A DNA stretch of 64,000 nt from Octopus sinensis (taxonomy: Eukaryota). How positions within the stretch are numbered: the first letter of the stretch is position 1; every line of letters begins with the position of its first letter. The notes below the pieces were generated by a model. That model searched no databases, had not been told where the DNA came from, and saw only the letters and a list, made by a program, of their open reading frames with translations. The stretch spans positions 3,782,001 through 3,846,000 of the forward strand of contig NC_042997.1 in the NCBI RefSeq assembly GCF_006345805.1. Reading direction: 5' to 3'. Positions 26,341-61,359 of the stretch are shown here, piece after piece. Made by a program: the position numbers and the translations under genes.

Positions 26341-26440
26341 TGGAATTCTTCGATGATCCCTAGACTTTATTCTGTATCCGGAGGATTATATCACTATTAC
26401 TCCTAATTTTCCACCCTGGTGACATAAATGAAATCATATT

Positions 26441-26461
26441 TTATTATTATTAATATTTATA

Positions 26462-26553
<92 letters not shown>

Positions 26554-26567
26554 TATAGTAGTAGTTA

Positions 26568-26604
<37 letters not shown>

Positions 26605-26634
26605 TATAGTAGTAGTAGTTGTAGTAGTATTAGC

Positions 26635-26682
<48 letters not shown>

Positions 26683-26712
26683 TGTTGTTGTTGTAGTAGT
26701 AATAGTAGTAAT
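26441..26712. repeat. Compound trinucleotide microsatellite (ATT)n(AGT)n
   Basis: Directly visible in the sequence. Confidence 0.98.
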
Positions 26713-27079
26713 GCGGTGAACTCACCGAATCGCAAGCGCCTCCGTCAAAATCTGACGAGCGCATATTACACTTCGCTTCGCTAGGCGTAACAGCACGGAA
26801 CGGCGCGAAAAATATTCGCGAATACGTATAACGGTTAACCTCCCCTCCCATCCAAATGATTTTTACCCCTGCGACATTAGTTTGGCTGGATAATCAGATA
26901 CTCTTTGAATTCACCTTGTCTGTCTATCTATCTGTCTCTATATCTTTCGGTATATCTATTTATCTATCTGTATAAATGTTTTTCGATCTATTTCTCTCGA
27001 TCCTTCTCTCTCTCCCCCCTCTCCATCTCTCTCTCTCTCTGTCTAACGAACCTCCATGTTTACGTTCGGTTTCCTTTAT

Positions 27080-31670: not shown

Positions 31671-31971
31671 ACTGAAAACGTAGTATATCCAGGAAAGTTG
31701 CGACATTATAAAGGGATTCCTACCCGGAATTTGTTGCTCTTCGATTACTATCGCAAACAGCAGTAGCTTTCCTCAGATAAATACACGTCGCTGATTCGTT
31801 AAAATTACACAAATACGACAACTTTAACACGATATATATTCTAAAATACGAAATTTTGTCGAAAATGTTGAAACCTTGTTCAGCGGGAGAAATTACACCA
31901 TTATACGAAGATTCAAACTTTTTAGCTAAAAAACAATAATTAATAAATTTGCGGACAAACTGAAGAGAACC

Positions 31972-32178
<207 letters not shown>

Positions 32179-34569
32179 AAATGTAGCATGTGAAGAGGAA
32201 TATTGTAGGTCAAGCCATCTAGACTCTTCGACTTGTACCGCATTCAATAAGTTGTTGCTTCCCCAATCTCATTAGTTGTCCAACATTCGTAAAAAATCTG
32301 ATCCTAACGCAAATTACCCGACAAGGTGTCGAATTAGACATCAAAACCTATCTGCGTTCCCTGTCCACCTTCTTGCTCCAAATAGTTGAACGAATGCTGT
32401 ACACCTGCGATTAGTTTCGACATCCTGGAGCCAATCAGGTCTCTTTGTATGAAACCTAGAGAAATCGATCGTACTGTTGAAATATATTACCGTTTGTGCA
32501 GCTGATCAACTAGTATTCTGGACAACCTATGTTATCCTTATCCGTTAGCTTACACATTATTCTATGCAGCTCCGGTCTGTTTGATCTGATGCTATTTAAC
32601 CATGTGCAAATCGGCGCATTCTGACAATAGTCTTGCCTCTCAATGTGTCGGAAATGACTTACAAGTTTTTGAGAATTTGGCACCTTTCTCTTGTCAAGTG
32701 GTCTCACACAATCAGGAGATGCACAAACGATAACATTCCAGTCGCCCACTCGCACTCAAGAAGCATAATTGTTGACAAAATATATCTTAAGTTAATCAAA
32801 GCTTAAAGGGATACGATATAAACCATGTGTTTGAATATATTGGCAAACTGATCATCCAGAATCACTGAAAAAACAGAAACAAAGACAACGGCCACACACA
32901 CACACACAAACACACACATACACAGATATAGACACAGACACTTTAATGAAACAAATATATGCAGGGAAAATCCCAGGCGTTGTCATTTGCCAATATTTCA
33001 CGGGCTACAGTGAAAAGTATACACTGGATATTACTTCATTCATGCTTTCTTAGTTGTGTAGAATGTCTTTTGTCGCCCATATGTAACAGAGTAACGGATA
33101 CGAGTCGGTAATAGCTAAGTAATAAATTAGATGTTTTGTTGTGTCGCTATTTGAAAACTTTTGTAACGCCAGAATAAATAGGTAAGCGAATATTATACAC
33201 ACTTCTTCAGAATGAAATTCGAATCTTATATTTGTTGCAGCTGCGTCCCTCTGTGAGGATAAATAATTCAATTATATCGTTCAGTATCTTTCAATATTAT
33301 CACAATATAAATTACAAAGTACCCCTATTTTTAAGTAATTGCACATGCTGCAAGTATTGCTATTTAATCAATATTGCTATTTTAAATTTCCTTAAGAAAT
33401 ATGTTACTACGAAAGTTATATAGTTTTGTTATATCTAGTCGTTTATTCTGAATAAGCTCTACTGTGCTTTTACTAACGTTATTACATTCATTTATATAAC
33501 CAATTTTGAAAATTTCTGATTTGCCAAAAATATATTCAGAAAGCATTTATAGTACACACCAGACAATAAAAGTTATGAATAAAACGCAGTCAGTTTAGCA
33601 CTCGTTACGTTATGCTATTCTTTCCTTTTAGCTCTCTTCAAGTTCGTTTTAGCCAATTTGACATTTTCTCATTATTTTTCTTTCGTCGAAAGTATGATGT
33701 TTGTAGCTATTCTTAGTACATTCTTGAGCATTATTTATATAAAACTTTCTTCTTTTTGTTCTTAGATACATAATCTCATTTGTTGTTTCACTGATCAACC
33801 GACTTCAAACATAATTGATTCGATTTTATTTCCAAATACTCTTTCAGTGTAACACAGTTCTTTACATTAAACAGCTTTACCCTTAAATTTCTATTTATGT
33901 CCTACGATGCAGAGTATAGAGCTTTACAAAATACGAGTAGCACATCTTTTGAAAGTAATTCGTCGTTACTTTTGGGATTAATTTTTCTAAAATTGAACTG
34001 TTTTACACCATTCATTGCTTGTGCTGAATATCTCTAAACTTGTAGCATTATTGTATTAATCAGCTCTGGAAATTTACATTGGAATGTTTGCTTCTACAAT
34101 AAAGAACTCTTGTTTTTGTTTTTTTTACCTTTTAAAATATTTTGTACTTCTGTTTTGTAAAATATATAATCGTCTTTAGAGAATACATCACACGTCCGTG
34201 CCTGTTTCACACCTAATACACATTACAACACGTCGCAAAAATGTTTACAATTCCATTATAAATTGAAAGAAAGCGATGGCTAGAGCAGAATATATTAGAA
34301 GAGGTATTAAATGTATTTTGTATTGACACACACTTTAAAAGTCTCGAAACAGTTGACAGCAACATTTACACACGCATGGAACAAGTAGAATATTTTACGT
34401 ATTTTATCTTCCCCCTACATAACTGTGCGTGTTTCTGATAATGTTTGCTTGTTTGCCTCTGTACGTATAACCACTTGCACTTATATACGCGTGTGTACAT
34501 TTATGTGTGAATATATATGTATGCATGAATGTATGTATGGATGTGTGTATGTATGTATGCATATATTTT

Positions 34570-50340: not shown

Positions 50341-51280
50341 GTGTGTGTATGTGTGGATATGTGCGTGCGCGGAGGTCTGCGTGTGTGTATGTGTGTATGT
50401 GTGCAATGATGACACGTGTGTGTGTGCGCGTGTGTGTGTGTGCGCGTGTGTGTGTTTGCGCGCGTGTGTGTATGTGTGTGGTAGTGGCTGTTGAACAAAG
50501 CGTGTTTGTAGGGCTAGTAGTGTGAAGGTCGAAGAAGAAGGAGTGGTGTCTTTTGTCTCTGCCACGGATCAGTAGTGCTACTTTGAAGTATGCGTGTGTG
50601 TGCGTGTATGTATATGTATCGTGTGTGTGTTTTGTTTGTAGTGTGTGTGTATGTATGTATGTGTGTGTTCGTGTGTGTGTATGCGTAGAGTTTGAGTGTG
50701 TGGCGAATAACTGTGTTTTACTTAGTGTATGTGTGCGTCTGTGCTTGTACGTGCGTATGTGTGTATACATGTATGTATAATTGTGTGCGTGTAAAATTGT
50801 GTGTGTGTGCGTGCGTGTCGTATGTACGTGTAGTGTGTCTGCGTGTACATGTGCCTTTGTATGTATGTGTGTAAGCGTATATGGCTGTATATACGTGTAT
50901 CCGTGGGGTTGTGAGTTTTGGGTTTGTGCATTCGTGTGCGTGTGTGCGTGCGTACGTGTGCGCATGTTTTCGTGTGCGTGTGTGTGTCTGTGTCTATATG
51001 TGTATACGTAGATGTATGTGTGCGTGCGCGTGTAGGCATATATTGTATATATATATAATATATATATATATTATGTGAATAGAAGATGAATAATCTTGTA
51101 GTAGATTAATCAAAGTTTAACCGATACATTAGTAGCAAAAATCACAGCAGTAAACAGCACGGTTGGAGATACAACCATCTGGCGTTGCAACCGTGCGTTG
51201 GTGCGGATAATTGAAATTAAAACATTATTGGTGAATTGAAGAAATGGAGCTGAACGCAGATTGAACAGAAATCGTTTTAT

Positions 51281-51367
51281 TTCATTCCACACGTGTTTCG
51301 AAAGGCACAAATTACCAAAATCCGATTGAATAATGGGACCATATTGTGTCTTTCTCATCAGGAAGAA
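51281..51367 (-). ncRNA. Type I hammerhead ribozyme copy with GUG at the cleavage triplet (predicted inactive)
   Basis: Reverse complement of the 53498-53583 motif, with C at + strand 51288 giving GUG instead of GUA. Confidence 0.7.
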
Positions 51368-53497
51368 AAAAGGAAATCCGTTGGAAACACAAAAACAGAA
51401 CAGAGGCGGAGCAAAAAACAAATCGAACTGTGCTCCTAAGAGCCCATGGCGAAACTGTTTATCATTGTATGTTGAGAACCGGTGGCTGAAGAATTCAACG
51501 GGTCAGGCATCGGTCAATCATGTGGGTGAGGGTGTATAGATGTTCTTTGTGACCGAGAATAAAGTTCTGACTATTTAAGGAATATTGGATGTTTTATAAG
51601 GGGCGAGAAAAAATCTACTTAGAGACGTGTGTGTGTGTATACTGTTCTATATATGTGTGTGTTGGCGTAGGGGTAAAAACATTTTTTGTGTACGTGTGTG
51701 CGTTTGATCGTTCGGCTGTCAGTGGCTACTGCCGTGATAACCGTTGGGTGGCAGAAAGAAAAAAATAAAAAAAATATATATATATTATGTTTTAGTGTGT
51801 TGTGTGTTCATCTGAGCCTGCCTTGTCAAGGAAACCCCCCGCTGTGAGAAAACCAAGCCCCGTTTGTCTTACAGGAGTAATTCCCCTTGCAGTGGTTAAT
51901 CGTAGATATCTTAAAGGCTATTTCAGAATTTGTTACCAAGGCTATGAGTGCCGGTACTATTTATAAACGCTATTTAAAGGCCAGGTAAGTGTAACGCCGC
52001 CAATGGGGGCATCGAAAAGCCGACTGTAAGAGCCCGTTTACCATCCGGCCTCTGGCACACAAAATATGGAAGAGTTCGGAGACACGGTTGCACTGTCTTC
52101 TGCCCCTATCAAATGGGAGGGCCACCCAAAATTGACCATTCCAGCCTATAGCTTAAGTTCGCATCCTTCAGTCGCCATATTAGCTTACTGAGTCCCGTGG
52201 TCTGGCGCTTGTTCACGTCCCGAAAAGTTGCGTAATGGTTGGAGACACGCAAAGACAATCTTGAGGATGATGCCCCTACATAAGTGAAGGCATCTGAGTC
52301 CGTGTAAACCTTGCATTGGTAGACGGCGTTTTTGATCTTGGAGTTCGCCGACGTGAATCTTAATCTGCTAGGATTAGTTTCTGAAATTAGAACTGCGTTC
52401 CTGTCACTATATTCGTTCCGAGACCTGCAGCGAGCCGCTTACTACTCTATTTTCCACTACGTCACTATTAACTATAGGAATAACCCCTGATTCTCCACTA
52501 TCTATCAGAGTGCTGTCATTGCTACTGCCCGTGGTACTGCTATTGCGGGAAATGATGCTGGGGATGCTAATGGGGCTCTCTACCCTACTCCCATTATTAC
52601 CGTCAACCACAACACCCCTATTTATACTATACCCCTAGTGGGTACTCCCTGGCTGGAGCTGAGATTATGTGTCACTGTACTGGCTCTCATCTCATTATTA
52701 CTACTGTAATTATTCCTACTGAGCATTAAACCGGGAGCGGAAGAGGCTGTGCCTCCGGAAAAAGGTGATAGGGTCTTAGTAAGTAGCCTATTATTATGGG
52801 AGGCGATTATCTGGGCGAGGTTTTTAGTGTTGGAGAAAGCTATCCTAACTTTATGTAGTTAACCGTGGAGTAATATTTGGAATTCTGGGAATTATTGGCG
52901 ATGGCTTGTCTAAACATGAGGGGAGGTTAGTTCTAATCTGCTTACCAAAGGGGATTACAAACCATATATGCTTATTCCATCAGTGTGATGGGTCGGGACG
53001 CCAGCTCTCGCATTCGGGTGGGTGATTCTCGGATGAATAACGGGTCTTGGGTTAGTGTAAGACCTCCCGGACCGATAATTATCCTTGTTCGCTAAATTAA
53101 ATGCGGGAGCGACTACCCCGGCATCCGCCGCGCTCCCGTCCTTACTTAAAATGTTAATGTTATTATATACGGCCCTATCCTGATGACCGAATGATGGCAT
53201 CGGAAGGGCCGGATCAATATAAATTACCTTCTGCCTATAACCGGCCTTGGATAGTGCGGCGTTATAAAATTCCGCTTCTGCATAAAAATATCGGCACTGG
53301 CGGACAAGCCAGACAATCTTAGAGAGATGTTTTTAACCAAATTGTCTGTTACGGTTTTGGCATGATTTGAATTCTTCAGCCACCGGTTCTCAACATACAC
53401 TGATAAACAGTTTCGCCATGGGCTCTTAGGAGCACAGTTCGATTTGTTTTTTGCTCCGCCTCTGTTCTGTTTTTGTGTTTCCAACGGATTTCCTTTT

Positions 53498-53583
53498 TTC
53501 TTCCTGATGAGAAAGACACAATATGGTCCTTATTCAATCGGATTTTGGTAATTTTGTGCCTTTCGAAACACGTGTAGAATGAA
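53498..53583 (+). ncRNA. Type I hammerhead ribozyme with intact core and extended stem II
   Basis: Stem I 5' strand TTCTTC; core CTGATGA (53504-53510); stem II GAAAGACACAA with TTGTGCCTTTC (10 of 11 bp, G10.1-C11.1); GAAA (53565-53568); palindromic stem III ACACGTGT; triplet GUA (cut after 53576); stem I 3' strand GAA-T-GAA. Confidence 0.8.
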
Positions 53584-53759
53584 ATAAAACGATTTCTGTT
53601 CAATCTGCGTTCAGCTCCATTTCTTCAATTCACCAATAATGTTTTATATATATATATATATATATATTATGTGTTGTGTGGTGTGGGGTGTGTGTGTGTG
53701 TGTGTGTGTTTGTGTGTTGTGTGTGGTGTGTGTGTGTGTGTGTCTGTGTGGTGTGTGTT

Positions 53760-60420: not shown

Positions 60421-60421
<1 letters not shown>

Positions 60422-61342
60422 TTATTAGTGAATTTAAGAAATGGAGTTGAACGAAGATTGAACAGAAATCCTTTTATTGCATTCTACACGTGTTTCGAAA
60501 GGCACAATTTACCAAATTCCGATTGAATAAGGAGACCATATTGTGTCTTTCTCTTCAGGAAGAAATAGGAAATCCGTTGGAAAAAACAAAAACAGAACAG
60601 AGGCGGAGCAAAACAAGTCGAACGAGGCTCCTAAGAGCCCATGGCCAAACTGTTTATCAATGTATGTGGAAAACTGGTGGTGGGTGCGTTGAAGGTTTTA
60701 ACGGGTGAGGCAGCGGTCATTCCGGTGGGTGGGAGCATGGGGTGCTTAGATGTTCTTTGTGACCGAGACTAAAGTTCTGACTATTTAAAGAATATTAGGT
60801 GTATTATATGGGGCGGGAGAAATCTACTTAGAAACATGTGTGTGTGTACTGTTCTATGTGTTCGTATGTGCGTTTGATCACGTGGCCGTCAGTTGGTAAA
60901 CAGCCCTACACAATGGTCACTGCTGTAAAATCTGTCGGGTGGCAGAAACATTTTTTTATGTGTGCGTGTGTTCGTCTAAACCTGCCTTGTCAAAGAAACC
61001 CCCCGTCGTCAAGACAAACCACCATTCGTCTCCCAGGAGTAATTCCCCTTGCAATGGTGGTTTGTCTTGACGACGGGGGGTCTCCAAATCGGAATTTGGT
61101 AAATTGTGCCTTTCGAAACACGTGTAGAATGCAATAAAACGATTTCTGTTCAATCTTCGTTCAACTCCATTTCTTCAATTCACTATTAATATTAAAATTC
61201 AATTATCCGAACCAACGCACGGTTGCAACACCATATGGTGGTACCTCCGACCGTGCTATCTTCTGCTGTGATTTTTGCTACCAAGGTATCGGTTAAACAT
61301 TTGATTAATCTGCAACAAGATTATTCATCTTTCTATTTCACA
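60421..61342. mobile_element. Short non-coding derivative of the 51-53.6 kb PLE: pLTR plus 3' UTR, snap-back hairpin, then inverted partial pLTR and extension
   Basis: 60421-61052 parallels 51224-51890. 61086-61342 is the reverse complement of ~51075-51330. (TA)n flanks both sides. Confidence 0.9.
60481..60564 (-). ncRNA. Type I hammerhead ribozyme copy (core CUGAAGA, triplet GUA)
   Basis: The minus strand reads TTCTTC-CTGAAGA-GAAAGACACAA..TTGTGCCTTTC-GAAA-CACGTGTA-GAA. The only core difference is at variable position N7. Confidence 0.75.
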
Positions 61343-61359
61343 AAATATATATATATATG

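Follow-up and report, generated by a model that had tools for sequence, protein, structure and literature searches.

How does a retroelement come to lie in a genome as two outward-facing copies of its own 3' end, each with a ribozyme motif? This question is raised by an element at positions 51069-53646 of a 64,000-nucleotide stretch of Octopus sinensis DNA (assembly GCF_006345805.1, contig NC_042997.1, positions 3,782,001 to 3,846,000 of the forward strand), to which we refer as the window. By its sequence, the element is a copy of a young Hydra-type Penelope-like element (PLE) family with a type I hammerhead. The formation of inverted and tandem PLE structures is named as an open task in the portion of Craig et al. 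2021 (PMC8557442) used here. We report that inverted insertions of this family nearly always combine one long and one short terminus, and that their two arms share haplotypes. It is probable, in our view, that a single and probably uncleaved RNA is reverse-transcribed twice, once per nicked target strand, from two likely fixed start sites.

Layout of the Inverted Insertion

The window element is best read as one insertion, in which two 5'-truncated arms face outward in a (TA)n tract. The arm on the minus strand (51069-53370) consists of an open reading frame (ORF) remnant, a 3' untranslated region (UTR), a hammerhead motif and a tail, and differs from a natural copy of the family (locus L080) by 21 substitutions in 2296 columns. 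Its 3' end lies ~220 nt beyond the predicted cleavage site and belongs to the long terminus class. The short-terminus arm on the plus strand (53367-53646) is truncated at -210 and ends at +70, and the two arms overlap by 4 nt at 53367-53370. (TA)n target tracts adjoin the long end (51043-51070) and the short end (53647-53668). Each arm contains a type I hammerhead motif, in a GUG form on the minus strand (51281-51368, with the G at 51288 and a 55-nt helix II) and in a GUA form on the plus strand (53497-53584).

A first-pass annotation, made from the letters alone, had described ~280-bp inverted pseudo-long terminal repeats (pLTRs) with few differences. The comparison bears this out: segments 51218-51498 and 53367-53646 are 98.2% identical over 282 columns, with 2 substitutions and 3 gap columns. 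Its element boundary at 51218 had to be moved, as the minus arm extends to 51069 and only then runs into (TA)n. The ~150 nt at 51069-51217 (minus strand) form a tail that is found at one end only of inverted insertions; in tandem copies it continues for ~50 nt further to the start ATG. A hairpin is predicted in the tail (51157-51196, minus strand, corresponding to +92 to +131; z -2.2 to -2.5 in three copies), between the two termini of the family. Both ends of the window element (51069-51085 and 53630-53646) carry a similar motif, TTCAC..ATAAT on the sense strand, running into (TA)n. This terminal motif suggests that priming may occur via short TA complementarity.

Pairing of Long and Short Termini

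We compared arms at loci covering 91 of the first 100 listed places, with pairs assigned by coordinates. Among the 112 arms, 92 lie in 46 outward-facing pairs, and inversion is thus the usual by-product of PLE integration. The arms end past the cleavage site at either +56 to +70 (54 arms) or +217 to +222 (57 arms). One long and one short terminus are combined in 43 of the 46 inverted pairs (p = 5e-10 against 50:50), and the sole long+long pair results from mispairing, being an internal tandem with one short and one long outer end. At further loci the combination was found in 113 of 117 pairs; this set was drawn from 199 loci, 67 of which had no pair inside the fetched stretch and 15 of which were duplicates, and it was de-duplicated internally only and may repeat a few insertions of the 46-pair set. 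Pairs from five other families, hand-picked as inverted pairs, followed the same rule in 12 of 12 cases. A missed-adapter artefact was rejected as the source of the inversions because the two ends and the flanks differ.

Partner arms are discordant at 7 of 416 diagnostic sites, compared with 26% for random arms, and the window pair is discordant at 0 of 16. They differ at a median of 0.6% of sites. Of the 43 pairs, 18 have a short-end arm that extends further 5' and 13 a long-end arm that does so, while the remaining 12 have junctions symmetric to within 20 nt (7% at random); in 9 of the 43 the long arm ends at +89 to +175, before the short start site. Six long arms, including one internal tandem, have 5' ends at +129 to +134, which is the 3' base of the tail hairpin.

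Searches for truncations at offsets -2, -1, 0 and +1 from the cleavage site gave pattern counts of 42, 30, 28 and 54, respectively. Junctions were confirmed in 16/30, 20/30, 19/28 and 14/30 of the matches examined, these being 30 of the 42 at offset -2 and 30 of the 54 at offset +1. No peak at the cleavage site was found at these offsets, which argues against the cleaved 3' product as template and for an uncleaved one. Near-full-length copies start at varied points around the upstream hammerhead.

Models for the Paired Termini

In the scheme that we favor, two reverse transcriptase (RT) active sites, probably contributed by a protein dimer, would bind around the tail hairpin and serve one start site each, ~65 and ~220 nt past the predicted type I hammerhead. 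The long-end cDNA would stall near the hairpin or displace the other cDNA, and the two cDNA ends would be joined via microhomology, such as the 4-nt overlap in the window. The ribozyme is likely slow and dependent on dimerization or on protein, and it would act outside the integration step. A wider proposal, to which we give somewhat less than an even chance, is that obligate twin priming may be the normal integration route of these PLEs, with a dimeric RT-endonuclease using one RNA at two fixed sites that flank the tail hairpin, which would account for both the inverted repeats and the one-sided tail, and that the long-helix-II hammerheads described below may form an undescribed type I class, whose 40-70-nt arm would be a selected functional module.

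Several points weigh against a single RNA with two start sites. The pairing rule is broken by two short+short pairs among the 46, and by two long+long and two unclassified pairs among the 117. Short termini scatter across 15 nt at TA-like letters, so that they could mark a place of cutting or trimming instead of the start of synthesis. The concordance of the arms might have been raised by gene conversion or by assembly polishing, and one RNA is incompletely separated from two RNAs of the same source locus. The lack of a truncation peak would also be expected from a circular, religated template. The one-end tail has already been described (PMC8557442, in the portion used here), and in the in vitro system of Frangieh et al. 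(PMC11167929) no strand difference in start sites was observed, whereas the rule found here needs coupling.

The alternative that survives best, which we consider unlikely though well short of negligible, is that two RNAs from the same source locus are held together, for example via the palindrome of helix III or via dimeric protein, and that each primes one strand in an asymmetric complex, with the long start site used by one RNA and the short site by the other. Kilobase-long arm overlaps would then arise without strand displacement. The palindrome is kept in all 12 hammerhead groups analyzed below and is predicted to be stable only between molecules, and concordant arms are expected if both RNAs come from one locus or from one tandem transcript. 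A symmetric RNA dimer, however, provides no cause for one terminus of each kind, and the long arms that often stop before the short start site (9/43) are also difficult to reconcile with two RNAs. Several subfamilies are present in the genome, and pairing between loci should therefore have produced more than the 7 discordant sites among 416.

We regard as improbable a fold-back route, in which a single cDNA begun at the long start site bends back at a microhomology and is then copied, and the short end is produced when this copy is trimmed or cut by the endonuclease at an AT-rich site. Such a route directly explains the concordance of the arms, and the excess of symmetric junctions (12/43), some of them at near-palindromes, would be in line with it, as would the attribution of the tail to endonuclease-mediated resolution by Craig et al. 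(in the portion of PMC8557442 used here). Yet in 18 of 43 pairs it is the short-end arm that extends further 5', sometimes by kilobases, and the fold-back would need common later deletions to account for this.

Very improbable is the first-pass proposal that the inversion puts active ribozymes on both strands for the processing of read-through transcripts, together with its option that GUG is a reverse-transcribed adenosine-to-inosine edit (considered below): the outward layout makes the antisense arm come first, and an arm-arm duplex (predicted at -498 kcal/mol, compared with -49 for the arm's own fold) would dominate folding, so that read-through from outside likely buries the ribozyme. Read-through of many inverted insertions would instead yield long double-stranded RNA.

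Hammerhead Motifs with a Long Helix II

The plus copy contains CUGAUGA at 53504-53510, a helix II region at 53511-53564 (11+32+11 nt), GAA at 53565-53567, the palindrome ACACGUGU at 53568-53575 and A17 at 53576. The position of A17, together with a stem I of UUC/GAA, places the predicted cleavage site at 53576/53577. The minus copy has the same layout. Cores, helix II and palindrome were thus located on both strands, in agreement with the motif proposed for each arm and with its reported GUA/GUG difference. CUGANGA and GAAA cores with an NUH triplet are present in the plus copy, and are incomplete in the GUG copy and in a half copy at 61.1 kb. By the NUH rule, the GUG form is predicted to be inactive.

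The first-pass annotation had drawn helix II as an 11-bp stem with a ~32-nt loop, and had suggested a large-loop variant of the ribozyme. We find 10 pairs and an A.C mismatch in the stem, and the loop is predicted to consist of an internal loop and an apical hairpin. An interrupted helix is more likely, in these models, than a large open loop. Helix II is indeed far longer than in the published Hydra-clade motifs, but it is not special to the window element. The 8-nt palindromic stem III proposed earlier is present as a palindrome; it is not an intramolecular stem of that length, since the monomer form would have 2 bp and a 4-nt loop. Predicted stabilities are +2.4 kcal/mol for the monomer and -10.3 kcal/mol for an intermolecular duplex, which fits activity of helix III as a dimer or with the help of protein.

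An Rfam search returned no hammerhead match, either at the gathering score or at E<=10, and the long helix II is the likely reason. Four weak matches were dismissed as chance: two microRNA-like ones on a microsatellite, twister-P1 (E=8) and U6atac. The whole motif folds no better than shuffled sequences (z +0.49 and -0.23), and the call thus rests on the cores and on covariation. Helix II alone deviates from shuffles in its commonest variant (z -2.15); its apical part is weakly supported within the family (z -1.2 to -2.6).

Two further features of the motif were observed. A basal mismatch recurs in helix II, being A.C at the sixth position in the window element (53516, 53559) and located at the fourth position in an unrelated hammerhead family (L153-L172), where some copies are paired. 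In addition, a pyrimidine tract ending at AG lies inside the hammerhead core (53490-53512, plus strand) and is a candidate splice acceptor, helix I being where the intron of Drosophila virilis Penelope ends. Contigs from four runs cover the hammerhead region and contain no splice joint; the RNA origin of these runs was guessed, the contigs carry no information on RNA ends, strand or editing, and we used them as evidence in neither direction.

We next asked how far the long helix II extends beyond the window family. A 21-mer ending in the GUA triplet has 3,323 exact matches in the genome and its reversed control has none, placing the pattern far above chance. A pattern that excludes the first helix II pair of the window family found 192 copies, mostly of one unrelated family with compensatory changes, and a pattern for other helix III sequences with 40-70-nt spacers gave 3,213 further matches (control 26). 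In all, long-helix-II hammerheads account for ~6,700 genome matches in at least 12 sequence groups, compared with 1,313 matches for short ones with 8-38-nt spacers (control 58). Three of the other families with such a long arm gave Hydra-type ORF matches.

The 12 groups analyzed were clustered crudely from fetched loci, and some may be related. Helix II cannot be aligned between the families, and pairs were therefore counted from anchors in place of a covariance model; apart from the cores, G10.1-C11.1 and AC/GU, nothing had been fixed by the group search pattern. Of helix II, the first four pairs are kept in 39 of 48 cells (19-21 in a slid control), and the stem I pairs are kept in 33 of 36 (control 13-19). 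The palindrome of helix III is exact in 10 of 12 groups and is present in all 12 when G-U pairs are allowed. The three hammerhead helices therefore covary across families. In all 12 groups the helix II region measures 42-69 nt and includes an internal loop and an apical hairpin in the predicted folds, and it is likely an arm for binding or folding, not an open loop.

Hammerheads also occur in other repeat contexts. Tandem repeats of ~400 bp (L294-L300; contig C1 of the genome, at 2173411-2173877, 4297863-4299124 and 46320175-46321443) each contain a hammerhead with a 44-nt helix II and the helix III ACUGCAGU, and resemble a retrozyme array with a long-arm motif. A very abundant short hammerhead resides in tandem units of ~350 bp (C1:105634457-105636603 and many others); these resemble a classical non-LTR retrozyme and make up most of the listed short-spacer matches. 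At another locus (L302, C1:64667000-64674500), a different, non-LTR-type RT fragment with a YADD motif lies between two hammerhead copies.

The GUG Copy

The A-to-G change in the minus arm had been ascribed, as one option, to editing, and a tally of such changes at the triplet bears on this idea. In a genome pattern search, the 20-mer preceding the last triplet position was followed by G in 21 cases, T in 8 and C in 0. This raw G count exceeds the counts at two control sites (3 and 10), and the site lies in a UAG context, which is favored by ADARs. On inspection of all 20 other G loci, 2 of them and the window copy proved to be true substitutions, while 18 of 21 are indels or complex changes. 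True GUG thus amounts to 3 of ~3,340 copies and, with the indels removed, is similar in frequency to the changes at the control sites (A>G made up 4 of 10 variants at one and T>C 2 of 3 at the other, counted raw and without inspection for indels). One further GUG is located at a junction.

The substitution spectrum of the family points in the same direction. Sense A>G changes (121/48,286, or 2.51 per 1000) are below T>C changes (161/48,889, or 3.29 per 1000), and TAG>TGG was counted 8 times in 2,717, against 12 in 1,670 for its mirror. These numbers come from 186 of 221 alignments, after a strand-blind, flank-based de-duplication that dropped 35, some of them wrongly. Within the window, the partner arm has GUA, though it matches the GUG arm at 16 of 16 diagnostic sites. 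The editing origin thus finds no backing, and we interpret GUG as a one-off change of a single arm that arose in the DNA, through the RT or in the assembly.

The Family, Its Protein and a Second Insertion

The young Penelope element recognized in the first pass is confirmed. The family numbers over 3,300 copies, and these are young, with a median nearest-neighbor difference of 0.28% and an identical neighbor for 44 of 91 arms. Intact ORFs are found elsewhere: natural copies have open frames of 867 and 899 residues. The unit is ~3.6 kb long and consists of a 2.7-kb ORF, 686 nt to the cleavage site, and the tail. Partial tandems were found at three loci (L077, L080, L088) and, together with the inverted pairs and the one-sided tail, correspond to the pLTR arrangement of PLEs.

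In the window, the broken ORF remnant (51970-53370, minus strand) begins at about residue 431 of ~895 and covers the end of the RT and thumb, a Ser/Asn-rich linker and a GIY-YIG endonuclease, with intact relatives P0001 and P0002. It has 11 indels relative to an intact copy, 8 of them single-base deletions, and assembly errors possibly account for part of these. Pfam and PDB sequence searches with the family protein gave nothing significant, and the Pfam GIY-YIG profile (PF01541) was passed by 1 of 8 homologues tested. In a structure model of the intact copy P0002 (pLDDT 80), telomerase RTs take the first six places among the PDB fold matches (best E 3.5e-9); residues 492-560 and 637-766 form two low-confidence insertions. 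YRDD is invariant among 111 aligned sequences. At the C terminus, an AVY...YVG motif with invariant Tyr-782, Tyr-795 and Gly-797 identifies the GIY-YIG endonuclease.

We compared the family with the hallmarks of the Hydra clade. It has SDKT (DKT for DKG) and RIRW, matched by eye to the alignment in the Hydra supplement, and CNLC...E...N...CPH in the endonuclease, which corresponds to the CxxC and CxH of the clade. Nearly all listed termini run into (TA)n, those that do not being internal tandems and a few rearranged copies. The N-terminal motif reads RWL in the window family, compared with RWK/R in 109 of 122 proteins examined. The unit exceeds the <3 kb of Hydra elements. The CxCX5C linker motif, which occurs in 116 of the 122 proteins and is kept by sister families in the same genome, has shrunk to a single Cys (65 of 77 translated reads show SGCRSRNEY). 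With this reduction, we file the family as Hydra-like with a lost linker motif rather than as a typical member. Other Hydra-type families that retain CxCX5C were seen at L301 (C1:7050500-7058000), L303 and L304. In L301 and L303, thumb and linker are separated by long Asn-rich insertions, and expansion of low-complexity sequence thus recurs at this spot.

A second, independent inverted insertion, from a sister subfamily, is found at 60421-61347. Its short arm lies on the minus strand with a complete CUGAAGA/GUA hammerhead near 60478-60565, and its long arm on the plus strand, from 61087, has a half motif that lacks the CUGANGA half. Of the two GUA hammerheads annotated at 60.4-61.3 kb, the one at 60.5 kb therefore stands, whereas that at 61.1 kb is not a hammerhead. 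The insertion is internally rearranged, with a short inverted piece near 61000-61085, and its tail variant keeps the hairpin. The window as a whole is very rich in microsatellites, with long (ATT)n/(AGT)n and (CTA)n/(CTG)n triplet arrays at 26430-26740 and 31930-32180.

Discussion

The rule of one long and one short terminus, together with shared haplotypes, makes the question of how inverted PLE insertions form directly testable in an existing in vitro system. Long-helix-II hammerheads number in the thousands in this one genome, yet Rfam misses them and they lie outside the short spacers of published descriptors, and counts of animal hammerheads may therefore be too low. The many natural long-helix-II variants represent ready-made test material. 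That a (TA)n-targeting family lacks the linker Cys motif weakens the proposed link between this motif and microsatellite targeting.

Twin priming in LINE-1, as put forward by Ostertag and Kazazian in 2001, reportedly uses one RNA at both target nicks and yields an inversion joined by microhomology; it is said to be occasional, with a variable internal primer site and segments that barely overlap. In the window family, by contrast, the twin insertion is the main outcome (92/112 arms), with a second site that is fixed and with the same sequence usually present in both arms.

Much of the groundwork for PLEs is published, namely hammerheads, palindromic helix III, opposite-strand pairs, inverted copies, the one-sided tail and TA targeting (in the portions of PMC4209133 and PMC8557442 used here). 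The window family shares with the Hydra clade, as presented in that portion of PMC8557442, a single ORF with RT followed by GIY-YIG, an RW(K/R)-type motif, DKT, the CxxC/CxH of the endonuclease, (TA)n targeting, a pLTR type I hammerhead that is often GUA, an inverted 5'-truncated copy and a one-end tail. It differs from the clade in its ORF of ~895 residues and unit of ~3.6 kb (<3 kb), in a linker with one Cys in place of the full CxCX5C motif, in a helix II of 54-55 nt (~11-24 nt in 30 Hydra rows of File S2) and in a tail of ~150-160 nt (30-40). Identity with Hydra-1_Obim was rejected, as both hammerhead and protein differ. The nearest precedent found for the long helix II is a pair of spike-moss PLE-X motifs with 29-35-nt loops, marked as non-canonical in the same portion of PMC8557442.

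The minimal PLE hammerheads, as covered by the portion of PMC4209133 used here, are likewise of type I, with a short stem I, a G10.1-C11.1 pair, a palindromic helix III, a larger-than-usual helix II and opposite-strand pairs 100-700 bp apart; their helix II has 6-8 bp, compared with the 42-69-nt region in our 12 groups. They cleave weakly as dimers (portions of PMC4209133 and PMC6765202). The portions of bioRxiv 10.64898/2026.07.22.740005 and PMC7229834 used here contain nothing that bears on the long helix II. In the literature consulted, we found no genome-dominating long-helix-II class and no statement of the one-long/one-short rule with shared haplotypes, although precedents may exist in supplements of hammerhead papers or in older Penelope papers.

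A close mechanistic parallel is the Poseidon PLE protein PAc, which cuts and extends both strands, has two internal starts, is predicted to form a dimer and uses an unprocessed RNA template (PMC11167929). Its hammerhead is protein-assisted and not needed for insertion. Both systems have two internal RT starts that define the tail, an AT-rich target and a stem-loop near the start sites. In Poseidon, the start sites are adjacent and not linked to a strand, whereas in the window family they are ~155 nt apart and used one-to-one per insertion. The hammerhead lies across the start codon in Poseidon (PMC11167929), and in the window family it is found in the 5' UTR, ~270 nt before the ATG.

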